From: Planctomycetales bacterium
Lineage (GTDB): Bacteria > 4484-113
Length of the DNA: 11,959 nucleotides
Reading direction: 5' to 3'
Assembly: GCA_037445915.1 (NCBI GenBank)
Contig: JBBIJQ010000012.1
Location: 31,818 to 43,776, forward strand
How positions within the stretch are numbered: the stretch's first letter is position 1; each line of letters starts with the position of its first letter. Under the pieces are notes generated by a model. That model saw only the letters and a list, made by a program, of their open reading frames with translations. It had not been told where the DNA came from and searched no databases. The position numbers and the translations under genes are program-made. Positions 358-11,959 of this stretch are shown here, piece after piece.

Positions 358-365
358 AGGAGGTG
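358..365 (+). promoter_or_regulatory. Strong Shine-Dalgarno site
   Basis: AGGAGGTG lies 9 nt before ATG 375. Confidence 0.85.
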
Positions 366-374
366 AAACGGTCC

Positions 375-1379
375 ATGAACCGTAGAGGTTTTACCCTCAT
401 TGAGCTGCTAGTAGTTATCGTAATTATTGGTATTCTGGCGGCGATTGCGTTACCGAACTACATCAAGGTGAAGGACAAAGCCAAGGAAGCTGAAGTGAAG
501 AGTAATCTGCACAACGTTCAGCTTTCAATTGAGCGCTTTGCTGTTGACACCGGCGGTACCTACCCCGATTTCCTAATCGGTGGACAGGGCAAGTACTCTG
601 CGTTCGTTGAGGGCAGCGCAAATGCCTTCATCAATGTAACAGATTGCCCTGACCGCACAATCCTCAGCGACCCGCTTCTTCGCAAGGGCTACATTGAAGC
701 TTATCCCAAGAACCCCTTTGCGACCAACGGCGCAGCCATTCACCGCTTCCAGACTGACATTGGAGACCCAATGTACAACGGTAGCAACATCGGCCGTGAC
801 CAGGGCACGCGCTTCGGCCCGTACTGCACGCTGATGGGCAACGTGCTTGCCGACTTCCGTTACACCCAGTATGTTGTGGTGAACCAGACGAACGGCACGC
901 AGTCCACCCGCAACAGCTACAGCAACATCCCTTATCCGTTCTGGGATCTGTGGCGCAGCAACAAGCCGAACCCGTTCCTTCCCGGCGAGTTCTTCTACAA
1001 GAGCGCGGGTTCTATCGTCGTCGCTAATGCGAACTCTGTTGACCCGAACCGCCCGGTTGTCCCGACCATTGTTGAGCTCTACATGCTCGGTGGTTATGGC
1101 GCAATCCGCACCAAGGGCAAAGATGTTCTAGGCCCCGAGCCGCAGATCACCTTCCGCCCCAACACCGGCCAGGGCGGCCAGACTTCTGAGTTCAGAGTGC
1201 CCGCCTGGACGCGTTCAACAAACCAGGCTGACGGCGCCAACTTCCTCGGAAGCCCGTACGGCGGCGCTACTGCCGACTCGACCGTGGAGCAGCTTGGCTA
1301 CGGCGCACCCAATGGCGTCCGCGACGGCATCATTCTGGTGCTGGTACCCGGCGAAGATACTAAGGGCGCACGCGAGTAA
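375..1379 (+). CDS. Large prepilin-type N-terminal cleavage/methylation protein (type IV pilin / GspG-like pseudopilin), 334 aa
   Basis: Class III signal MNRRG|FTLIELLVVIVIIGILAAIALPNY with Glu5, followed by the helix AKEAEVKSNLHNVQLSIERFAVDTGGTYP and a GspG-like YIEAYPKNPF motif. Start moved from GTG 363, which lies inside the SD, to ATG 375. Confidence 0.9.
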   Translation: MNRRGFTLIELLVVIVIIGILAAIALPNYIKVKDKAKEAEVKSNLHNVQLSIERFAVDTGGTYPDFLIGGQGKYSAFVEGSANAFINVTDCPDRTILSDPLLRKGYIEAYPKNPFATNGAAIHRFQTDIGDPMYNGSNIGRDQGTRFGPYCTLMGNVLADFRYTQYVVVNQTNGTQSTRNSYSNIPYPFWDLWRSNKPNPFLPGEFFYKSAGSIVVANANSVDPNRPVVPTIVELYMLGGYGAIRTKGKDVLGPEPQITFRPNTGQGGQTSEFRVPAWTRSTNQADGANFLGSPYGGATADSTVEQLGYGAPNGVRDGIILVLVPGEDTKGARE

Positions 1380-1514: not shown

Positions 1515-3632
1515 ATGAAAGCACTACGCTTAGCTTTGCCCGCCACGATATTGATGCTGGCACTTTCCCTTTCCGCCTACGCCTCTGTGGAGTTCTTTCC
1601 GCTTTCGCATGTAAAAGCAGGGATGAAATGCATTGGCAAGACCGTAATTCGCGGGACAACCATTGAAACCTTCAATGTTGAGATACTGGACATCATTCCA
1701 GATGGCGGGTTTGACGGCTCGGCAATTATTTTAGCCAAGTTCTCAGGGCCAGTGATAGACTCCTCCAACGGCATTGCCGAAGGCTACTCTGGAAGCCCGG
1801 TTTATATCAACGGCAAGCTACTGGGCGCAGTCTCGTCCGCAATCCCCTTCAGCGACACGCATGTGGGCGGCATAACCCCAATAGCAAACATGCTTGCCGC
1901 GCTCCCGAACCGCTTTCGCGGCGATTACTCCAGCAATACCGTCGTCCCAGAGCCGAACGTAAAGCGCAAGCTGAAGTTCACTGAAAACCTGAAAGCCGCC
2001 GAGAAATCAAATGAGCAACAGCCTTTAGAAGGCGGGACGCTTTCGGCGGTTCCGATTAGCGCGCCCATCGTCGTATCAGGCCTCAGCGCAAACAGCATGC
2101 GCATACTGGAGGAGAAGATCGCCAACAGCCCCTTTCTTCACCTTGCGCCAATCGGCGGAGCTGGAGACGGAGTCGGCGGCTTGCGCAAAGGGCTGCTTTA
2201 CAGCCCTGCGGCTGATGGACCGCTTCAGGCAGGCGACGCAGCGGGAGTCTCGTTGATGACCGGCGACATTGACATCAGCGCAATCGGAACGGTAACTTAT
2301 GTTGACGACAACGGGCAGGTGCTTATGTTCGGCCACCCGTTCAATATGACCGGCGAGATTGACCTTCCGCTTCAGAAGGCATACATCGCCTACACTTATA
2401 AGAGCATTGAGCGCGCCTTCAAGGTCGGCTACACTCTCTACCCCGTAGGCGCCGCCAAGCAAGACCGCGCGGCGGCCGTTGGCGGGCTTCTGAACGCGGT
2501 GCCGGATATGGTGCCGATGAAGATCACTATCCGCGATATAGACATGGGCATTACGCGCGAGTTCAACGTGTCCATTGCGCGTGACCCAAGCTGGTTTGAC
2601 AGCCTGGCGATGACAGCGTTCGGCGAAGCTCTCGTGCGGACGGTTAATATGCAGCGCGGCGGAACGGTGCGGATGGAATTCGCGCTGGAAGGCAGCGGGC
2701 TCAAAGAGCCGCTTAAACGCACCAACTATTATTACTCCAACTTATCGCCTACGGACGTTGTCTGGGAAGAGATGCTCCCGCTTGCTTCGCTGCTCGCCAA
2801 CAATATCTACCGCGAAGTGAAGCTTACGAAGCTGTCAGTTTCGGTTGACTTCACCCGCAACCGCGTGAATGCTGCCATTGACGGCGCTGAGCTGCTGCTG
2901 CCCGGCGAGAAGCCGAAGAAACCGCTCTTAGCAGGCGAGCCTGCCCAGGCGGATGCGGCAGGGGATGAGGTGGAATCGCAGCCCGAAGGGGAGGACGGCG
3001 CAGGCAGCTCCACAACACAGCTACAGCAGCAAAACAGAACTGCTCAAGATAGCGCCGTGGCGGAAGCTGCCACCCCTCTCAGCCCAGCTCTGCCCCAGCC
3101 AAGGACAGTGCGCCCAGGTCAATTGCTGCGCGTGGTTGTGCGGCTCCAGCCATACCGTGAAAAGCCCATTGAGCAGATGATTTACTTCACTCTCCCCGCT
3201 GATTTCCCTGAAGGGCCGACTAGCATGGTTGTGCATAGCGGCGGTGGCCTGCTTTCCATATTCAACGAGTTTGGCGGGCGCGGCAGATACTTGCTTGGAA
3301 TGGGTAATTTCGTTAACGTGCCAGTCAACCTGCACGACCTAGACAAGATTATTGAGAAGGCTCTCTCAACTCCGCTCAACAACGATATCGTCGTGAGCAT
3401 CCTCAAACCAGGCGTTGACCCAAGCGCCGGGCAGAACGCGCAGCCGGCGAAAGCCGCCGAAGATCCGGACTGGGAACCCGATTTCCGCGTTAGCTTGCCG
3501 ACCAAGTGGGTAATTTATGAAGGGCAGATGATTCCGATAATCGTCGCCAAGGCGGGAAGCGAGGCTGATAACCAGCCCGCTACCCGCGCGGAGGCGGATG
3601 AAGTAGAAGGCGAAGGGGACGGGGAAGGCTAA
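1515..3632 (+). CDS. Secreted SpoIVB-like peptidase S55 domain protein
   Basis: Signal peptide MKALRLALPATILMLALSLSAYA; S55 serine motif GIAEGYSGSPVYINGKLLGAVS (Ser92); GTVTY...FGHPF motif (His274); GGAG SD at 1503-1506; acidic linker and acidic tail. Confidence 0.85.
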   Translation: MKALRLALPATILMLALSLSAYASVEFFPLSHVKAGMKCIGKTVIRGTTIETFNVEILDIIPDGGFDGSAIILAKFSGPVIDSSNGIAEGYSGSPVYINGKLLGAVSSAIPFSDTHVGGITPIANMLAALPNRFRGDYSSNTVVPEPNVKRKLKFTENLKAAEKSNEQQPLEGGTLSAVPISAPIVVSGLSANSMRILEEKIANSPFLHLAPIGGAGDGVGGLRKGLLYSPAADGPLQAGDAAGVSLMTGDIDISAIGTVTYVDDNGQVLMFGHPFNMTGEIDLPLQKAYIAYTYKSIERAFKVGYTLYPVGAAKQDRAAAVGGLLNAVPDMVPMKITIRDIDMGITREFNVSIARDPSWFDSLAMTAFGEALVRTVNMQRGGTVRMEFALEGSGLKEPLKRTNYYYSNLSPTDVVWEEMLPLASLLANNIYREVKLTKLSVSVDFTRNRVNAAIDGAELLLPGEKPKKPLLAGEPAQADAAGDEVESQPEGEDGAGSSTTQLQQQNRTAQDSAVAEAATPLSPALPQPRTVRPGQLLRVVVRLQPYREKPIEQMIYFTLPADFPEGPTSMVVHSGGGLLSIFNEFGGRGRYLLGMGNFVNVPVNLHDLDKIIEKALSTPLNNDIVVSILKPGVDPSAGQNAQPAKAAEDPDWEPDFRVSLPTKWVIYEGQMIPIIVAKAGSEADNQPATRAEADEVEGEGDGEG

Positions 3633-3643
3633 GCTTAGTTCGC

Positions 3644-4486
3644 TTACGCGAGCTCTGGCGGAAGCTCGATTCCCTCACCCATCGGGAATGGTCCCCGGCC
3701 TGCAAGGAGGTCATAAAGCTGTTTTTGCTGCACAAGCATTTCAGGCTTAAGGATTGCGCGCAAAAGCCCCTTCCTTGCTTCAGGAATATCTGCGACAAGG
3801 TCAGAATCCGGCGCGGCTACCATACTCATCCTAAACGTTTTCCCTTCGCCGTCAGTGCCGCCGTGGTTCACTCCCACAAAGTAGCACTGCGTCTCCTGTG
3901 CGCGCGCGAAGTGCAGGTTTAGCCAGGGCTTGATGCGCGTCTCCGGCCAGCAGGAGGGCAGCACCTGAACGTGGCAGCCGGCGAGCGCGTAGTTGAGGAA
4001 CATCTCCGCAAAACGCAGGTCGTAGCAGATTGCGAAGCCGACTTTCCATCCCGCGATCTCCGCCGTAAACAGCTTCTTGCCCGGCGTAAAATGTTGCGGC
4101 TCATGGAAAAGCGCAATCAAGTGTATCTTGTCGTAAGTGCCTTCTGTTGTTCCGTCCGGCGCAAGGAGGAACGCGCGGTTAAAGAGGTTTGCTCCTTCGC
4201 GCACCATCACGCTTCCGAGAAGCACATAAGCCTTGTGCTGCCGCGCTTGCCCGCGGAACGGCGCGATGAACTCTTCTTCCTCGCCGCCTATGAGCTTGGA
4301 CATCTCGCCGTAATGGTAGTAGAGGTTAGATGCTTCTGGCGTGATGATGAGGTCGCAGCTTTCCGGCTCAATCTCGGCAAACATCTCAAGCAGCTCACGC
4401 TGGTTTTCCTTTGCATCGCGCGAGAATAGCCCAGCCTGAATCCCGCAGACGCGCAGGTCGCCGGTTGGAGGCTGCCAGGCGCGCAT
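3644..4486 (-). CDS. Carbon-nitrogen hydrolase (nitrilase superfamily; Nit/YafV-like amidase branch likely)
   Basis: Intact Glu-Lys-Cys triad: LIITPEA, YDKIHL, ICYDLRF. Also carries the ARAQETQCYFVGVN motif. An AAGGA SD overlaps the end of the upstream gene. Confidence 0.9.
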   Translation of the reverse strand: MRAWQPPTGDLRVCGIQAGLFSRDAKENQRELLEMFAEIEPESCDLIITPEASNLYYHYGEMSKLIGGEEEEFIAPFRGQARQHKAYVLLGSVMVREGANLFNRAFLLAPDGTTEGTYDKIHLIALFHEPQHFTPGKKLFTAEIAGWKVGFAICYDLRFAEMFLNYALAGCHVQVLPSCWPETRIKPWLNLHFARAQETQCYFVGVNHGGTDGEGKTFRMSMVAAPDSDLVADIPEARKGLLRAILKPEMLVQQKQLYDLLAGRGPFPMGEGIELPPELA

Positions 4487-4488
4487 AC

Positions 4489-4875
4489 TTATTCCTTAGC
4501 GGCGTCCTGGTAAATACGCCTTGCCATGTCAAAAGTCTCCTCGGCAATTGCCATCGCCGATGCGTCAAAGCCCACCAGCGGGAAATTAAAGACGTAAAGC
4601 ACTGTGGAAGTTTTCGTGTCCACGGCATACGAGCCCATCCATGTTTCACGGTTAAGCTCAAGCAGCATTTCAAACTGGGCCGCTGTATTCGCCTCGTCAA
4701 TGCGGTCAAGCACAAACATCAGGCGCAAGAATGTAGGCTTGCCCTTGTCCTGGAACGTTAGCGCGAGAAAGTAACGGTCATCGTGCTGCACCTGGTAGAT
4801 ATCCATGTTCCCTTCGGTAGTAGCTTTAGTGAAGGTGCAGTTAAGCGAGCCGAGCAGTTCTTCAAATCCGTTCAT
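4489..4875 (-). CDS. Small acidic protein, YbjN / CesT (type III secretion chaperone-like) fold predicted, 128 aa
   Basis: Size, acidity and the segment FEMLLELNRETWMGSYAVD followed by a C-terminal helix fit the family pattern (LLxLN....G.h.hD). ATG 4875 overlaps the upstream TGA (ATGA). ATG 4881 is an alternative start. Confidence 0.6.
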   Translation of the reverse strand: MNGFEELLGSLNCTFTKATTEGNMDIYQVQHDDRYFLALTFQDKGKPTFLRLMFVLDRIDEANTAAQFEMLLELNRETWMGSYAVDTKTSTVLYVFNFPLVGFDASAMAIAEETFDMARRIYQDAAKE

Positions 4876-6626
4876 TGGCAAAATCCTTTGTCCTTAAGGA
4901 ACGACCGCAAGGACATAGTGTTATTACATTCCCGTTCGGTGGCGATGAAGGTAAACTTCTGCAACCCAAGGCGCTCCTTTAGCAGTGACGGCATCCACAC
5001 TACACGCTTCAGCCCGCCTTCAGCAGCAAGGAAGTCGCGGCTGCGAAGGTAATCGTCTGACACGCCCATAACCCCAGGGACCTGCCTGCCTGCGACTTCG
5101 CGGAGCAGGCCGAAAAAAGTGCGCTGGTCGGGGGAATGCCCGTCGTAATCGCAACTGAGAACGACAATGCCTTCCAAGTGTTCGTTGTAATACGCGATGT
5201 TCTGCGCAAAAACCGTAACCGGCGGCGGGGAATCAAGCAGCGATTGCAGGCTAACTTTGCTGATGCCGCCTTCGCTAAGGATGCGGGCAAACTTAGAAAC
5301 CCCGCTGTAGAACACCTTATGCTTGTCAACAAGCTCGCCGCGCTTAATGGGGAAATGCTCCAGGCTGCCAGTGAAAAGAGCGCGCGCGCGGATGCCGTCA
5401 TAGCTGAGCTCGCACTGCGGCGGGTGTAGGACGGAGACAAAGCAAAACCCGTTGCGAGAACACCTCTGGCAAAATGTGCAGACAAACAGCGGAGCGTCAA
5501 AGTCCCCGCGTTTGGCAAGCGCATGGCGGCGCTCTTCCTTGTAGCCTGCTGCGATAGCCTTCAAGTTTTGCAGGCGAAGGCTGTCAAAGATGAGCTTGAC
5601 TGAGACCTGAGTCAGCGCGAACTTCTCCTTGAGCCTGCGATAGATTTCCCAGCCCACCTCTTCCGGCTCGCGCATCTTGCCAATGAGCACCAGCTTAAAA
5701 AACTCGCCCGGCTCCATGCGAACCCATGGGTGGCGAGCAAAGATGCGGTGCAGCTCGTTCTCCAAGTATGCAGTAAGCGTGATGTCCACATCGCTGTCGC
5801 CGAGGTCAATGATTAGCCCAGCCTCGTCTTCCATCTTCCCGCGAACTTCAACCCCATCAATGCCGCCCATCGCGCGCACTACGCAAAAAGACGAGTATCC
5901 ACCGCCGACTTCAAACCTCTCTGTATCCTCAATCGCCGTCAGATTGCCCTCCACACGCTTGATTTTCCGCGCGTTGAACACAGGCTGTAGGCGGTGAATC
6001 TTGGCGAAAAGGTCGTCAAGGTCGCTGATGAGGTTGTAGTTAAACATCGGCCCCAATGGAACGCGGCTGAAAATGGGGATGCTCAGGTGGTGTAGTGAGC
6101 GTAGGAGATTCTGGTCAAATTCATCGGGCGCTTCGTTAACGACAACCGCAGCCATCAGCCGCGAGCGCAGCAGGCTCACGAGCGAAAACAGGTCGCGCTC
6201 TTCCCAGAGGAAGAAGTTGTGCGCGTAACGCAAAACGTTTTGCACGAAGGGGATGACATGCGCAGGCTCTTCTGCCTGCGAAATGAGGAGGCCCGGGCAA
6301 TCGTAGTTCTCAAGCTCAGGTTCAGGCGTTAGGAAGTGGACGAAAGTCGTTGCCGGCGGGTTTTTGCGGAAAAGCTGGAAGAACCGCGCCCAGTCCGTCT
6401 CGCCCCCAAAAAGTGAAGCAAAGTTGCTAATCTCCATAAGCCCCAGGAGAATCAGCGGGTTACGCTGGTAACCGGCCTCTATTTCCTCAGGAGATTTGTT
6501 GAGCAGCACTGTGGTATCAAAGAGCATCCGGTTGACGATGAGCCTTGGCTCGTCTGGCTTCAGCGAAAAGCCCTGGAGCGCTCTTGCCAGCCGTTTGATA
6601 TTGAATGATCTCTGAACCCTTGCCAT
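4872..6626 (-). CDS. Acetyl-CoA synthase (AcsB/CdhC family) homolog, divergent, lacking the Ni-binding Cys-Gly-Cys motif, 584 aa
   Basis: The C-terminal domain follows AcsB domain 3 in order: CTFCQ..N.FC...PPQC..SY, SPDQRTF, GRQVPGVMGV, FLAAEGGLKRVVWMPSLLKERL, IATE, FLKDKG. The middle domain (EVGG, GLIIDL, YLENELH, LKEKF, VSVKLIFD, YKEERR) matches domain 2. Start taken as ATG 6626, 1 nt after the argS stop. Confidence 0.85.
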   Translation of the reverse strand: MARVQRSFNIKRLARALQGFSLKPDEPRLIVNRMLFDTTVLLNKSPEEIEAGYQRNPLILLGLMEISNFASLFGGETDWARFFQLFRKNPPATTFVHFLTPEPELENYDCPGLLISQAEEPAHVIPFVQNVLRYAHNFFLWEERDLFSLVSLLRSRLMAAVVVNEAPDEFDQNLLRSLHHLSIPIFSRVPLGPMFNYNLISDLDDLFAKIHRLQPVFNARKIKRVEGNLTAIEDTERFEVGGGYSSFCVVRAMGGIDGVEVRGKMEDEAGLIIDLGDSDVDITLTAYLENELHRIFARHPWVRMEPGEFFKLVLIGKMREPEEVGWEIYRRLKEKFALTQVSVKLIFDSLRLQNLKAIAAGYKEERRHALAKRGDFDAPLFVCTFCQRCSRNGFCFVSVLHPPQCELSYDGIRARALFTGSLEHFPIKRGELVDKHKVFYSGVSKFARILSEGGISKVSLQSLLDSPPPVTVFAQNIAYYNEHLEGIVVLSCDYDGHSPDQRTFFGLLREVAGRQVPGVMGVSDDYLRSRDFLAAEGGLKRVVWMPSLLKERLGLQKFTFIATERECNNTMSLRSFLKDKGFCQ

Positions 6627-6627
6627 G

Positions 6628-8454
6628 TCACATCTCGTCTGGCAGCTCAATGCCGAGTAAGCCACAGCCTGACGCTAGAACCACGCAAAACACCTTCACT
6701 AAGCACTGGCGGAAGCGCCGCTCGGCCTCTTCAGCCTTGAGCACGGGGCACGCTTGATAGAAATCGGTGAAGGCGCGAGTAAGCTCGTAAAGGTAATTCG
6801 CGAGCAGGTTTGGCGAATGTGATTCCTGCGCAAGCCGGGCGCGATCCGGAAACTCCGCGATGACGCGGCAGAGCATAGTTTCCTGCGCGGCTGGCGAATA
6901 CGCGTCCGGCACATCTTCGCCTGTATAGCCAACCAGCAGCTTGCGCGCTCGCGCATATGCATATTGGATGTATGGCCCGGCGTTGCCGTCAAAGGTAAGC
7001 GCCTGCTCCCAATCAAAGACGATGACCTTGGACGGGTCAACTTTAAGGAATGCGTATTTAATTGCGCCCAGAGCGACTATCCCCGCGACTTTCTCGGTTT
7101 CAGCACTGATGCCGCGCTCCGCAGCAAGCTCACGCGCCTGGGCCTTTGCTTCGGCAATGAATGCGTGGTAGGGGATTACCGTCCCCTCGCGGCTGCTCAT
7201 TTTCCCGCCTGCAAGCTGCACCAGCTCGTAGGAGATATGACGGCACTTCGGCGCGGCTGCGAATCCCCATGCCTGAAGTATTTTGAAAACCTGTTTGAAA
7301 TAAAGAACTTGCTCGCTGCCGACAACGTAAAGCGATCGGTCCACAGCATATTCGCGGAACTTCACCTGCGCCAGCGCAAGCTCTTTGGTCTGGTAAAGCG
7401 TAGTGCCGTCGCTGCGGCGGATGACCATTTTCCCCAGCTCCGGCGCGCCAAACCGCGCGAAATCAACGACGGCGGTTCCGACATACTCTCCTTCTGCCGC
7501 AACTTCTGCAACACCTTTAACGAGAAGCTCTTCAACAATTGTTCCTGTAAGCCCTTCAGCCTCGCTCTCAAAGAACTCCACGTCAAAGCAAACACCGAGT
7601 TCCCCATAAACGCGCGCGAATTCCGCCAAGTCTTCGCCTCGCGTATTGCGCCATAGCGTATATGAATCACTTTCCGGGTTGTCCAGGTCTCGTAGGATTT
7701 GGGGAATTCCAGCTTCCGCCTGCATTTTGATCTCAGCTAGGCGGGGCATATCACTATCCGCCGTGAGCAGCCGTTCCACCCGCGCATACACGCTCGCGAT
7801 TTTTGCGCAACCCATCAGCCCTTCGGCCTCTGCGAGAAGCCCCGTGTGCTGCCGCCCCCAGAGCGACTTAGCGACATGTATGCCGTGGTCGCCGTAGTAA
7901 TTGGCGCGGAGCACCTTGAATCCAGCGAACTCGTAGAGGTTCGCGATGGCGTTGCCAAGCAACACGTTGCGCAAGTGGCCGACGTGAAACTCCTTGTGCG
8001 TGTTTGGCTGTGAGAACTCCACCATCACGCGCTCGCCCTTAGCCTCGCCACGCCCGAATCCCGCGCCCGCCTTTTTCACTTCGGCAAGCAGCCCGGCGCA
8101 AGCCTGCTGTGTGTTCAGGTAGAAGTTCAGGTAACCGCCTTCAGCCTCTACGCGCCCTGTGGAGGGCGGCAGCTTCGCAGCCACCTCTCCTGCCAGTTTC
8201 ATCGCTATTTCGCCTGCCAGCGCGCGGCTGCGTTCCTGAAGCGCTTTCTTGGCCGCCTTCTTTCCCAATTCGCCCTCTAGGCGTATTTGCTCGCCTGCCA
8301 ACAGCGCGGCGGCAAGCTCCTGTGGCAGAGTTGACGCATATCCCCATTCACGCGGAGGGGCGATGCGGCGCAACGCAACCGGCAAGCCGGGATAGCCCAG
8401 CTTTGCGGAAGCATCCGCAATTCCTGAGATGAGGCTTTCTTCAAGCGGCCGCAA
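6628..8454 (-). CDS. argS: Arginine--tRNA ligase
   Basis: VMVEFSQPNTHKEFHVGHLRN (HIGH motif), RRSDGTTLYQTKELA, YVVGSEQ, GKMSSREG (KMSKS motif), GPYIQYAYAR, FYQACPVL and C-terminal LLGIELPDEM. The TTG start is tentative. Confidence 0.97.
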   Translation of the reverse strand: MRPLEESLISGIADASAKLGYPGLPVALRRIAPPREWGYASTLPQELAAALLAGEQIRLEGELGKKAAKKALQERSRALAGEIAMKLAGEVAAKLPPSTGRVEAEGGYLNFYLNTQQACAGLLAEVKKAGAGFGRGEAKGERVMVEFSQPNTHKEFHVGHLRNVLLGNAIANLYEFAGFKVLRANYYGDHGIHVAKSLWGRQHTGLLAEAEGLMGCAKIASVYARVERLLTADSDMPRLAEIKMQAEAGIPQILRDLDNPESDSYTLWRNTRGEDLAEFARVYGELGVCFDVEFFESEAEGLTGTIVEELLVKGVAEVAAEGEYVGTAVVDFARFGAPELGKMVIRRSDGTTLYQTKELALAQVKFREYAVDRSLYVVGSEQVLYFKQVFKILQAWGFAAAPKCRHISYELVQLAGGKMSSREGTVIPYHAFIAEAKAQARELAAERGISAETEKVAGIVALGAIKYAFLKVDPSKVIVFDWEQALTFDGNAGPYIQYAYARARKLLVGYTGEDVPDAYSPAAQETMLCRVIAEFPDRARLAQESHSPNLLANYLYELTRAFTDFYQACPVLKAEEAERRFRQCLVKVFCVVLASGCGLLGIELPDEM

Positions 8455-8542
8455 TGCCTAATGATTATTGACGATAACTCCTGTTTTCACAAGGAAATCA
8501 GGCCTAGAGCCTATGAGTAAGTGGGGAATCTAGCCTCGTTTG

Positions 8543-8567: not shown

Positions 8568-10850
8568 GTGGCATTAACCTCGGTGAAACCAACTAAATAC
8601 TCACAGGTTTCTATTCAGGCCCTCTTGAAGAAGCTGAACCCACGCCAGGTGTACAGCGTTTTCGGAGTGGACTCCAGCCGGGTGCAGGAAGCGGAAGACG
8701 CATTTCGCATTGACTGCCCCTTCCATCCTACCGCGTCAAACTACTCGCTGGTTACGGAGAAGGACAATACCGCGACCTACTGCCTAGACCTGGGATGCCG
8801 CGCATCACGCCTGAACGAGGGCGGCGGCAACCTCATTGAGTTCTATGCAATGGCGAAGAACCTTCCCTACGACACGGCGCTGGATGAATGGGCGGAACGG
8901 CTCAACATGGCTATGGAATCGCGGGGCGAGGAGGAGCGCGAACATGAGCGCGACATTTCCTACTTCAAGTATGTTGAGATTGGACGTTTCACGCAGGTGG
9001 AAGGCGAAGAGGAAACCTCGCTATCCTTAAAGCCGGCTCACCTGGTCATCGCAGGCGAGGAAGCCATCGGGCGCGGTATTATCATTCCCTTGGCCCAGCT
9101 TCCAGCCGCCTCCATCCAGTACAATTCCGACTTCTACCGCTCGCAGTTCCTTTACGAGCTGACTGACAAGGAAGCCATTGAAGAGGAACACCGCCGTGGC
9201 AGCCTCTATATGCTCGGGAATTACTTCATTATCTTTGAAGCAAAAACGAGCGCTGAGATTGTCCATGCCATCAACCAGGCGATTGAACTCGTGGAACGGC
9301 TGAACAAGGATTTTGAGATACCCTTTGAAGCCATCAACATCTACTACTCTCACAAGTATATAGAAGTTGAGGTTGATTACACAGTCTTCGGCATAATCCC
9401 GCGCAACGACCTAGACCGCGTCTTTGCTGAGATGACCCGCATCCTCATCGCCCACGACTCGCAGGCAGGAGAGCCGTCAACCACTGTCGGCTTCAGCCAG
9501 GTGAAGATTGACGCGTACGCTTATAACTACATGACTGCTGTTCCCGGCACGCGCATCTCCGTCCCCGGCAAAGAGCTATACAAGATACGGCTGCCCTACA
9601 ACCTTTTTAAGAAAACCTCCTACCAGCGCTTGCACGAGCTTTCCCGCCGCAAGCCTGAACTGGGTGAGCGAGGGCTGGCCGAGCGCATATCTCCTGCTGG
9701 CAGGACGCTTTACGAACGGGCGGTGCGCGCGATTGAGGGCGAAGGCAAAGAGGACGAGCACGAGACCATCGCCTCAATGTTCTACCGCGAGTCCGAAACG
9801 AAAACCCTCCCTGCTACCGCTGACCAGCTTGCCAAGACGCTGTTAAAGCGCCTGTTCTCGGAAAACCGACTGATTCTGCGCACGCCCAGCGACCACCTCA
9901 ATCGCGCGCTAGGCGGCGGGTTCTATCCCGGCAATCTATATATGCTAGCAGGCTTTCCCGGCAGCGGGACAACGACCTTCAGCATCTGGCTTCTCTGCAA
10001 GATTGCAGAAGAGCACAAGATTCCCTGCGTCTTCGTGTCGCTGCAAGTGGGCATTGAAGAGGTGTTCAAGCGCGCGCTGGCCATGCTCGGCAACATTGAC
10101 CTTGCGGAGATTTCACAGAAACGGCTGCGCCCCAGCGAGCTGTACTCCGACAGCTCATTCCACAAGCGCGCTTTCGCCGCTTACGAAAAGTTCCAGAAAA
10201 TAACCGAGCATGTCTCCATTATTGAGGGAACTAAGATCGCCAGCATTGAACACCTGCGCAAACTAGCGCTTAAGCTCAAGCAGCAAACGGTGGAGCAAAA
10301 CGGGATATCCAACGTGTTCATTGTCATCGACTCGCTGCAGCTGTTTCTGGCGCATATGAAGGCCGCGAAGGTAACCGATGAGACCTACGACCTAGATATG
10401 CTCACGGCTGTCCTCAAGTCGCTTGCCCGCGAGATGGACATCACCATTTACGCAACCGCTGAGTACTACACCGAGCACAACTCGTTCTACGCCGGCGTTG
10501 ACCCGTCCAATGTTGACTTGAAGGAACTTTACCAAAGCACCCAGTTCGCGGATGCGGTTGCCATCTTGAGCAACCAGGAAACGCGGCTGCACAACCTAAA
10601 GGACTTTTACCGCAGCGCGCTTGCGGGCGGTTACGAAGAAGAGAAGACCGACCGCATCACGAGCAGGCTGGCAGCCGTAGAAGATGCCCTGCGCTCCAGC
10701 GCGGATATGAAATTGCGGAATAGCTGCTTCACCGTCATTGATATCATCAAGAACCGAGGTGGGCTGACTAGCAAGGTGCTCTTTATCTACAACCGCGCAA
10801 ATGCCAACTTTGAGCCGGTGGAATACTGCGACACTGTGAACGGCACCTAG
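8568..10850 (+). CDS. Fusion protein: CHC2-type primase zinc finger + degenerate AEP primase-like domain + degenerate DnaB-like (SF4) helicase domain
   Basis: N-terminal CPFH-x18-C-x4-C...GGNLIEF..AKNLPYDTAL; central INIYYS...VFGIIP..DL...KID....PGT....LYKIRL...SY..LHELS pattern of phage-type AEPs; C-terminal LNRALGGGFYPGNLYMLAGFPGSGTTT, VIDSLQL, LKSLAREMDI, FADAV, IIKNRGG. GTG 8583 is an alternative start. Confidence 0.8.
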   Translation: MALTSVKPTKYSQVSIQALLKKLNPRQVYSVFGVDSSRVQEAEDAFRIDCPFHPTASNYSLVTEKDNTATYCLDLGCRASRLNEGGGNLIEFYAMAKNLPYDTALDEWAERLNMAMESRGEEEREHERDISYFKYVEIGRFTQVEGEEETSLSLKPAHLVIAGEEAIGRGIIIPLAQLPAASIQYNSDFYRSQFLYELTDKEAIEEEHRRGSLYMLGNYFIIFEAKTSAEIVHAINQAIELVERLNKDFEIPFEAINIYYSHKYIEVEVDYTVFGIIPRNDLDRVFAEMTRILIAHDSQAGEPSTTVGFSQVKIDAYAYNYMTAVPGTRISVPGKELYKIRLPYNLFKKTSYQRLHELSRRKPELGERGLAERISPAGRTLYERAVRAIEGEGKEDEHETIASMFYRESETKTLPATADQLAKTLLKRLFSENRLILRTPSDHLNRALGGGFYPGNLYMLAGFPGSGTTTFSIWLLCKIAEEHKIPCVFVSLQVGIEEVFKRALAMLGNIDLAEISQKRLRPSELYSDSSFHKRAFAAYEKFQKITEHVSIIEGTKIASIEHLRKLALKLKQQTVEQNGISNVFIVIDSLQLFLAHMKAAKVTDETYDLDMLTAVLKSLAREMDITIYATAEYYTEHNSFYAGVDPSNVDLKELYQSTQFADAVAILSNQETRLHNLKDFYRSALAGGYEEEKTDRITSRLAAVEDALRSSADMKLRNSCFTVIDIIKNRGGLTSKVLFIYNRANANFEPVEYCDTVNGT

Positions 10851-10993: not shown

Positions 10994-11959
10994 CTACCCT
11001 TCAACCACGCGCTTCGCGTCGCGCGCAATCATAAGCTCTTCGTTCGTTTGGATAACGAATACCTTCACCGGGCTGCCAGGCAGCGTGATGTCGGTATCGG
11101 GGCTCTTGAAGGTCTTGCGGTTTTTCTCCACATCAAGCTTGATGCCCAGGAACTCCAGCTTCGGCAATACCATCTCGCGCAACAAGGGGTCGTTCTCGCC
11201 GATGCCAGCAGTAAACACGACTGCATCAAGCCCGCCGATAGCCGCTGCGTATGCGCCGATGTATTTGCGGATACGGTAAGCGAGCATTTCCATCGCAAGC
11301 TTCGCCATTTCGTCTCCAGCCTCCGCGCGATCTTCAACGTCGCGCATGTCGCTGCATCCCGTCAGCCCTTTGAGGCCGCTGTTACGGAACAGCAAGTCGT
11401 CCATATCGTCGGGCGTCATGTTCAGCTTGCGCATCAGGAACGTGAGGATAGACGGGTCAAGGTCTCCTGAGCGCGTTCCCATCGGGACGCCGCAGACAGT
11501 CCCAAAGCCAAGGGAGGTGTCAATACTGCGCCCGCCGTCAACCGCGCTCAGGCTCGAGCCGTTGCCGAGGTGGCAGGTGACTATCTTGAGGCTTTCCACC
11601 GGCTTGCCCATAAGCTCGGATGCGCGCATTACGACGTATTTATGGCTTAGGCCGTGAAAGCCGTATCGGCGGACAGCGAACTTCTCGTAGTATTCATAAG
11701 GGATGGCATAGAGGTAAGAATACTTCGGCATCGCCGCATGGAACGAAGTGTCAAAGACAGCGACGTTGGGGATGCCGGGCATCTTCGCCATGCAGGCCGT
11801 TATACCTAGCAAATTGGGCGGGTTGTGCAGCGGAGCCATCTCAAAGTGCGCCTTAATCGCCTCAATCACCTCATCATTGACTAGCGCGCTGTCGGTGAAC
11901 GCTTCGCCGCCGTGCACCACTCTGTGCCCGACCGCATTAATGGCGCTGAGGTCTTTGAT
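10994..11959 (-). CDS. ackA: Acetate kinase, 5' truncated by the window
   Basis: The frame is open to the window end (IKDLSAINAVGHRVVHGG). Motifs: APLHNPPN, VAVFDTSFH, RRYGFHGLSH, CHLGNGSS, MGTRSGDLDP, VFTAGIGEN, TNEELMIA. Confidence 0.97.
   Translation of the reverse strand: MKDLSAINAVGHRVVHGGEAFTDSALVNDEVIEAIKAHFEMAPLHNPPNLLGITACMAKMPGIPNVAVFDTSFHAAMPKYSYLYAIPYEYYEKFAVRRYGFHGLSHKYVVMRASELMGKPVESLKIVTCHLGNGSSLSAVDGGRSIDTSLGFGTVCGVPMGTRSGDLDPSILTFLMRKLNMTPDDMDDLLFRNSGLKGLTGCSDMRDVEDRAEAGDEMAKLAMEMLAYRIRKYIGAYAAAIGGLDAVVFTAGIGENDPLLREMVLPKLEFLGIKLDVEKNRKTFKSPDTDITLPGSPVKVFVIQTNEELMIARDAKRVVEG

Follow-up and report, generated by a model that had tools for sequence, protein, structure and literature searches.

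An acetyl-CoA synthase homolog that has lost its nickel ligands, encoded beside argS in a Planctomycetales bacterium: a probable nickel-free iron-sulfur protein

The acsL locus

We analysed a stretch of 11,959 nucleotides from a Planctomycetales bacterium (assembly GCA_037445915.1, contig JBBIJQ010000012.1, positions 31,818 to 43,776 of the forward strand); this whole stretch is called the window below. The gene under study, acsL, encodes a homolog of acetyl-CoA synthase (ACS), in which the four cysteines of the [4Fe-4S] cubane are kept and the Cys-Gly-Cys that binds nickel is lost. It follows argS, the gene for arginyl-tRNA synthetase (ArgRS), and precedes genes for a YbjN-like and a nitrilase-type protein. 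The coordinates of all features are given in Table 1.

The open frame on the minus strand spans 4872..6665, but the ATG at 6626 is almost certainly the start, because all 14 database relatives (51-100% identical, 584-590 aa) begin at that residue. Residue numbers count from this ATG, which agrees with the numbering used in an earlier sequence-only reading of the same DNA.

Table 1. Coordinates of features in the window and, where a genome or locus is named, elsewhere in the phylum.
Feature	Position	Strand	Details
Type IV pilin-like gene	363..1379	+	N-terminal methylation motif
Secreted-protein gene	1515..3632	+	705 aa; partial SpoIVB/S55 peptidase match only
Nitrilase-superfamily (CN_hydrolase) gene	3644..4486	-	Pfam 1.4e-35; 2 nt past the YbjN-like gene
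YbjN-like gene	4489..4875	-	128 aa; Pfam YbjN 3e-4, under cut-off; start overlaps acsL stop
acsL, ACS-like gene	4872..6626	-	584 aa; ATG 6626, stop 4874-4872; from the open frame and the starts of 14 homologs
A2-A3 core of acsL	4875..5933	-	residues 232-584; structure match to 9c0s_E and phmmer 6.5e-27
Cys567, clade-specific fifth conserved Cys	4926..4928	-	17/18 clade members, 1/28 sister/canonical sequences
Thr471-Val472-Phe473 in place of the Cys-Gly-Cys nickel ligands	5208..5216	-	88 residues after Cys383; HMMER alignment
Cubane-binding motif C383-x2-C386-x8-C395-x9-C405	5412..5480	-	codons 5480-5478, 5471-5469, 5444-5442 and 5414-5412; invariant in the clade
A1-like N-terminal domain, shortened, prismane/Rossmann-like	5973..6617	-	residues 4-218; VIA-align to 9g03_D and 8riu_D
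argS (arginyl-tRNA synthetase)	6628..8454	-	Pfam tRNA-synt_1d, DALR_1; directly upstream of acsL
Sigma-70-like promoter match	8464..8492	-	intergenic, upstream of argS; one site against 1.8 expected
Primase-helicase-like gene	8568..10850	+	760 aa; divergent from argS
Acetate kinase gene	10994..11959	-	cut by the window end; Pfam 9.4e-128
Split ArgRS frames, locus L008	4681-5088 and 5902-7437		135-aa N-terminal and 511-aa catalytic-plus-DALR frames
Split ArgRS frames, locus L014	11981-12388 and 9640-11175		as above
Prismane-family genes (the only ones in the phylum genomes)	G009:C9:27843-29486; G012:C67:17337-18953; G013:C86:3627-5240		
NiFe-hydrogenase large-subunit-like genes of the window's genome	G000:C23:13977-15248; G000:C48:13084-14232		frames of 493 and 435 aa

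acsL keeps the cubane cysteines and has lost the nickel ligands

In AcsB of Moorella thermoacetica, Cys506, Cys509, Cys518 and Cys528 bind the cubane and Cys595-Gly596-Cys597 bind nickel; residue 512 is a Phe. The sequence-only reading had placed the four cubane cysteines of acsL at Cys383, Cys386, Cys395 and Cys405, with Thr-Val-Phe at 5216-5208, 88 residues past the first of them, instead of Cys-Gly-Cys. All of these codons were found exactly where it had put them. The cubane cysteines have offsets of 0/+3/+12/+22, and canonical ACS representatives are spaced alike (CTMCQSFAPDHVCIVAPERLGLC). They are present in 14/14 close relatives and in 18/18 members of the acsL clade, and they occupy the same columns in 28/28 canonical and sister sequences. 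Thr, Val and Phe take the place of Cys, Gly and Cys because HMMER aligns PPPVTV/FAQN of acsL to PHTSCG/CFEV of the archaeal CdhC 9c0s_E. None of the 18 clade members has a Cys at either nickel-ligand position, and their former nickel loop reads P-x-P-x-(S/T)-(A/V/P)-x.

Two further changes had been pointed out in the window, and both are real there; neither characterizes the clade. The extra Cys389 (CQRC) had been proposed to form a new metal site together with Cys386. Only 3/14 close relatives have a Cys at this position, the others having Tyr (nine) or His (two), and we rejected Cys389 as a new metal ligand. Likewise, NGFC replaces NHVC in the window and in its family-level group, f1, so that the His is lost there, but most orthologs of two other families, f2 and f3, retain it (KDHFC, KHHVC, PHAFC), and its loss was rejected as a trait of the clade.

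Homology and predicted fold

The only Pfam match in acsL is PF19436 (ACS_CODH_B_C), the C-terminal ACS domain, with an E value of 1.3e-25 and 90.8 bits against a cut-off of 25 (residues 393-567 in the GTG-numbered frame). The same model matches 34/34 relatives scanned, and neither the A1 nor the A2 models of Pfam matched the acsL protein. The best sequence match is CdhC of Methanosarcina thermophila (9c0s_E; phmmer E 6.5e-27). A search of the ESM Atlas returned canonical ACS clusters alone, at 0.81-0.82, under the lead level of 0.9. Nothing was found in a metagenome scan with the single acsL protein as query, and a scan with the alignment gave seven loci.

The sequence-only reading had expected automated pipelines to assign acsL wrongly to the Wood-Ljungdahl pathway. 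This does not hold for the curated NCBIfam cdhC/ACS models, which score 112 bits (TIGR00316 cdhC, cut-off 356), 132 bits (NF003379, cut-off 372), 109 bits (NF007078, cut-off 809) and 104 bits (NF040764, cut-off 800), nor for the source names, which are recorded for only 3/14 clusters of relatives and are all 'hypothetical protein'. Since the NCBIfam scores lie far under their cut-offs, it is the bare PF19436 match that could by itself mislead annotation.

An AlphaFold2 model of the acsL protein, made from a 34-row alignment, had a pLDDT of 90.4 and a pTM of 0.85. Over model residues 7..584 it matched whole ACS structures, 1oao_D with Z 36.3 (root-mean-square deviation, rmsd, 8.5; 554 aligned) and 7nyp_A with Z 35.4 (rmsd 6.1; 555 aligned), and Foldseek returned 7zkj_B at an E value of 4e-36. 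The archaeal CdhC core 9c0s_E matched residues 232..584 (Z 35.2, rmsd 2.8, 353 aligned), and the isolated ACS A1 domain 9g03_D matched residues 4..218 (Z 15.1, rmsd 3.7, 207 aligned). VIA-align also matched the N-terminal region to the carbon monoxide dehydrogenase (CODH) component 8riu_D (Z 12.2, residues 7..222) and the A1 region to 9fnc_D (Z 14.3). Homology to ACS is therefore far above chance, given the Pfam E value and structural Z scores of 35-36. Whole-chain and separate-domain matches thus point to a full A1-A2-A3 protein and not to a fragment; its A1 domain is shorter than that of AcsB and is missed by the sequence models. As modelled, the acsL protein is a complete three-domain descendant of ACS.

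With bacterial AcsB of M. thermoacetica (1OAO/1MJG) and Carboxydothermus hydrogenoformans (7ZKJ/7NYP/1RU3) the acsL protein shares the A1, A2 and A3 domains (Z 34-36, about 555 aligned), the C-x2-C-x8-C-x9-C cubane motif and the A3 motifs (G/S)xxY(L/I)xSxxF...GG...VVWMP. Unlike AcsB, it has no Cys-Gly-Cys, an A1 domain about 90 residues shorter and an identity of only 17-22%; it also has no CODH or corrinoid Fe-S protein (CFeSP) as partner, and it is encoded in an argS operon instead of an acs cluster. The archaeal CdhC (M. thermophila 9C0S/9C0T), which is its best match in both sequence and core structure, lacks an A1 domain and has the nickel loop SCGCFE, where acsL, with A1 present, has VTVFAQ.

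Position in the ACS superfamily

A phmmer search of the full library with acsL gave 260 matches at E <= 1e-3, of which the best 150 of 260 were used. The census held 164 proteins; in 145 the cubane motif was intact and followed by sufficient sequence, 19 were dropped, and removal of a duplicate of the query left 144. Among the matches listed, Cys-x-Cys stands at the nickel positions in 78/144, neither nickel cysteine in 43/144 (22 of them in the acsL clade), only the first in 13/144 and only the second in 7/144, and 3/144 are gapped there. Thus, 20/144 are without one nickel cysteine, and 21 are without both outside the acsL clade. On a FastTree tree of the census rows the Cys-x-Cys state changes at least 15 times. 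These counts suggest, from sequence, that nickel-less branches are frequent in the divergent part of the ACS family (both cysteines lost in 43/144 and one in 20/144 among the matches listed).

Homologs with four cubane cysteines that lack one or both nickel cysteines include P0059, P0062, P0066, P0079, P0080, P0083, P0087, P0089, P0103, P0105, P0121 and P0126, among others, in AcsB-like and CdhC-like parts of the tree. They share with acsL the retention of the cubane cysteines and the loss of nickel cysteines. Their nickel cysteines were lost independently, on distant branches of the tree, and a phylum-wide, argS-linked core gene was demonstrated for the acsL clade only.

In a quick IQ-TREE analysis (40 rows, 356 columns) the 12 nickel-less rows formed one clade with an SH-aLRT support of 97. 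This clade was nested in a clade of support 100 together with 13 CGC or CSC proteins of about 610-650 aa, and the joint clade was separate from the AcsB and CdhC rows. Because the nickel-less clade is nested among sequences bearing Cys-x-Cys, the loss of its nickel ligands is single and derived. It occurred once, in the ancestor of the clade, within a third ACS lineage distinct from both classical AcsB and classical CdhC. Members of this lineage (P0030, P0033, P0035, P0040, P0047 and others) are the immediate phylogenetic neighbours of acsL and have an alignable N-terminal domain; they keep both nickel cysteines, as CGC or CSC, whereas acsL keeps neither.

A preprint (10.64898/2026.07.07.736967) describes, in its section on the subject, an ACS clade whose members carry a structured extension at the N terminus, which branches between CdhC and AcsB and is found in CODH gene clusters. 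The sister group of the nickel-less clade may be this extension-bearing clade. That section makes no mention of nickel-less members, and a search of the literature in its main texts found no description of an ACS clade devoid of nickel ligands.

Conservation and selection

The genomes of the phylum supplied seven more acsL orthologs, with identities down to about 32%. Over 18 orthologs that are about 32-100% identical, 66 positions are conserved at >=89%. Positions were called clade-specific if their conservation within the clade was >=94% and their residue was rare among the 28 sister and canonical sequences. They are R251, M253, G254, G255, R262, I272, D274, L338, R351 and Y362, followed by F394, Y409 (Trp elsewhere), K445, P469, A472 and Cys567 (17/18). 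The gain of Arg and Lys residues together with a Gly-rich loop suggests a candidate site for an anionic ligand. In common with true ACS, the A3 domain keeps G513, Q515, G518, Y526, S529, F532, G537-G538 and W544.

We compared the ratio of nonsynonymous to synonymous substitution rates (dN/dS, NG86) of acsL with that of argS in the same six pairs of relatives (dS 0.47-1.29); pairs with the window were left out of these values, their dS being saturated (>2.4 or not computable). The ratio was 0.044-0.067 for acsL and 0.128-0.152 for ArgRS, indicating a looser constraint on ArgRS. Contigs from three further DNA runs of the same study also carry acsL, with 10 single-nucleotide polymorphisms (SNPs), all synonymous, and no indels. 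No ortholog match contains an internal stop, and the frames are intact. The sequence-only reading had argued from an intact frame with selectively kept Fe-S ligands, and the low dN/dS and the invariance of the four cysteines in 18/18 clade members bear this out. It had also named findings that would overturn it. Of these, a lone decaying copy is excluded by a dN/dS of 0.04-0.07 together with SNPs that are only synonymous, and an assembly artefact is excluded because the gene was recovered in the three other runs without indels and in a shared gene order.

acsL is found in nearly all genomes of the phylum, its partners in few or none

We searched 24 species genomes from the phylum of the window, which has four families, f1-f3 being sampled at the loci described below. 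acsL was found in 22/24, with a single match in each; in G003 the match consists of two fragments at contig ends. Both misses arise because the argS region is unassembled: the contig of G022 stops inside argS, and in G007, which is 62% complete, argS is missing as well. acsL is a vertically inherited, probably universal core gene of this small uncultured phylum.

CdhD, the corrinoid Fe-S protein (PF03599), was found in 0/24 phylum genomes. The prismane family (PF03063) occurs in only 3/24, all of one family and none in f1, as frames of 555-567 aa; judged by length alone, these three genes probably encode hybrid-cluster proteins rather than CODH, and most or all genomes are thus devoid of CODH. 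In the genome of the window itself (1.79 Mb, 90% complete) neither CODH-family nor CdhD genes were found. With no CFeSP in 24 genomes and a prismane-family protein in only three, the acsL protein is therefore probably not an ACS.

We also considered whether a nickel-free lifestyle had caused the loss of the nickel site. The genome of the window has two genes resembling the large subunit of NiFe-hydrogenase (Table 1), so the cell uses nickel, and this cause was rejected.

Gene neighbourhood

The genes argS-acsL-(ybjN-like)-(nit-like) form a tightly packed, operon-like string. The argS/acsL junction is TGA-C-ATG, with one base between stop and start, acsL and the YbjN-like gene overlap in ATGA, and TAA-GT-ATG joins the YbjN-like to the nitrilase-type gene. 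The best NCBIfam matches of the latter are of the omega-amidase/Nit type and lie under their cut-offs. Scans for promoters and terminators stayed at chance level, and it is the position alone of the sigma-70-like match, upstream of argS, that is suggestive.

The window was compared with 14 distinct loci (L002-L015; L016 and L017 repeat L007 and L006). In the window and in 14/14 other loci, down to 32% acsL identity, the gene immediately upstream of acsL is argS; it abuts or overlaps acsL across f1-f3, ArgRS of those families being only 36-48% identical to that of the window. In 11 loci of f1-f3 the next gene after acsL is the YbjN-like one; it is missing in four (L005/L019, L007, L023), where the nitrilase-type gene comes directly after acsL. 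The nitrilase-type gene comes after acsL in the loci of f1 and f3 and was not found in the f2 stretches searched. A complex prediction for the acsL and YbjN-like proteins (score 0.00, mark 0.32) carries no weight on binding in either direction. In one genus of the phylum ArgRS appears to be split into two open reading frames about 800 nt apart, one N-terminal and one carrying the catalytic and DALR parts (Table 1).

The gene divergent from argS encodes an N-terminal CHC2 primase-type zinc finger (Pfam 9e-4, weak) and a C-terminal DnaB-like helicase domain (1.9e-20) that scores far under the DnaB equivalog cut-off; its product may be an unusual primase-helicase-like replicative protein. This DnaB-like gene is present in 11/14 other loci at 38-73% identity, and it was not found in L006 and L007, nor within the shorter stretches of L012 and L015. 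The pilin-like and secreted-protein genes at the other end of the window are syntenic across f1, where the pilin-like protein is 68-78% identical, above ArgRS of the same loci. The acetate kinase gene is not kept near acsL in the six relatives' loci searched (L002-L007).

Discussion

We conclude, with a probability of roughly 0.8, that the acsL protein is a functional, nickel-free Fe-S protein that is not an ACS. The nickel site is lost, the Fe-S site is kept and the gene is strongly preserved, and it should therefore have a job other than that of ACS. The sequence-only reading had likewise proposed that the protein cannot build a normal A-cluster, does not work as an ACS and has been repurposed as an Fe-S protein, and this proposal is supported as far as computation reaches: nickel cysteines in 0/18 and cubane cysteines in 18/18 clade members, CdhD in 0/24 and the prismane family in 3/24 genomes, and strong purifying selection. 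The predicted protein would neither make nor cleave acetyl-CoA by nickel chemistry. It would instead be a [4Fe-4S] protein with a housekeeping role, in which the ACS body would still be used, that is, the hinged A2/A3 cleft beside the cubane and the A1 docking domain.

The estimate given above applies to this core statement and to none of the four mechanisms by which the protein might act. The one we put forward most readily, though at somewhat under even odds, is a redox-active or redox-sensing Fe-S module that would act upon a partner protein or together with it. It is conceivable, at roughly one chance in three, that the former nickel site and cleft have been remodelled into the pocket of an enzyme; such a pocket would use the R251-x-M-G-G...R262 loop, R351, K445, Y409, P469/A472 and Cys567. 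It seems unlikely that the cluster is mainly structural, in a scaffold protein, and less likely again that another metal is held at the old nickel site.

Several observations weigh against the reading of acsL as a repurposed Fe-S protein or against particular forms of it. The cubane of the ACS A-cluster is fully ligated by cysteines and has no open iron, which speaks against a substrate reacting directly on the cluster. The proteins of the acsL clade are near neutral (pI 5.5-8.0, net charge -18 to +2), which gives no hint of nucleic-acid binding, and such binding, looked for in the charge, was dropped as without support. The CoA-binding Trp of the ACS A2 domain is given as Trp405 in C. autoethanogenum (10.1101/2024.08.05.606187). 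This CoA-stacking Trp is not clearly kept in acsL, as MAFFT aligns it to Lys311 and HMMER to Trp301. Trp301 is confined to the f1 family, and the sister clade that bears Cys-x-Cys is also without the CoA Trp. Finally, the place beside argS may have been conserved because the block of housekeeping genes is stable and not because the two genes share a function, the divergent DnaB-like gene being conserved as well.

According to one alternative, the acsL protein is tied to ArgRS as its Fe-S subunit, as a redox regulator of tRNA-Arg charging, or as a tRNA- or arginine-related enzyme. Such a tie would explain the constant co-encoding of the two genes in the window and 14 loci of f1-f3, and the one-base spacing of the two genes and the stronger conservation of acsL than of ArgRS among relatives fit it too. 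However, the DnaB-like and YbjN-like neighbours keep their places just as well, which may mean simply that the block is stable, the acsL protein is not basic, and no fused ArgRS-ACS-like protein was found among longer proteins (weak evidence). We regard a tie to ArgRS as improbable. Similarly doubtful is a bolder proposal, that acsL encodes an ACS-derived nickel-free [4Fe-4S] protein whose new function is essential to the whole phylum and mechanistically coupled to ArgRS, and that the at least 15 recurrences of nickel loss mark an unrecognised class of 'ACS-like Fe-S proteins'.

Another alternative is that the protein is still a metal-dependent C1 or thioester enzyme in which nickel or another metal is bound through bridging Cys386 and Thr/Ser471, Cys567 or Tyr409. 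The first nickel-cysteine position is Ser or Thr in 18/18 clade members, a fifth Cys is present in 17/18, and many A3 motifs of true ACS are kept. Yet the Nip/Nid site has lost both of its defining thiolates, and the Gly that gives its backbone amide to Nid is now Ala, Val or Pro. Moreover, 21/24 genomes have no CO source (CODH) and 24/24 no methyl donor (CFeSP), and the candidate ligand Cys389 is not conserved; we consider such an enzyme distinctly improbable. The absence of the partners and the loss of the catalytic ligands are also what would be seen if acsL were a relic of a Wood-Ljungdahl pathway since lost, decaying or without function, but a relic would not be expected to have a dN/dS under that of ArgRS, 10/10 synonymous SNPs, intact frames in all orthologs and 66 positions conserved over 18 diverse orthologs, and we give this explanation hardly any weight. 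An assembly or binning artefact is further still from what was found, a gene carried by contigs of three further runs with few synonymous differences and no indels, in a gene order repeated in 14 independent genomes, and its probability is negligible.

The hybrid-cluster protein (HCP) is a nickel-free relative of Ni-CODH that keeps the fold and Fe-S chemistry and has another job. By analogy, acsL may stand to ACS as HCP stands to Ni-CODH, with fold and Fe-S core retained, nickel gone and the job changed. HCP belongs to another protein family, and its hybrid cluster is defined and its activity known, whereas acsL is known here from sequence and a predicted model. If the bolder proposal above were true, 'ACS-like Fe-S proteins' would form a class comparable to HCP beside CODH, and acsL might, for example, place tRNA-Arg charging under Fe-S or redox control or use the old CoA cleft for a reaction linked to tRNA or arginine.

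ACS is taken to mark the Wood-Ljungdahl pathway and is counted among the oldest enzymes. The acsL clade calls for caution here, since PF19436 matches in metagenome surveys are not equivalent to carbon fixation. A natural 'cubane-only' ACS could help to tell what the [4Fe-4S] cluster and domain motion contribute apart from nickel chemistry. For the phylum itself, a poorly known group of subsurface fermenters, acsL points to a housekeeping function that awaits assignment, and for the family it indicates that the whole three-domain body of ACS can be kept over long evolution without nickel, CODH or a methyl donor, under a constraint stronger than that on ArgRS.

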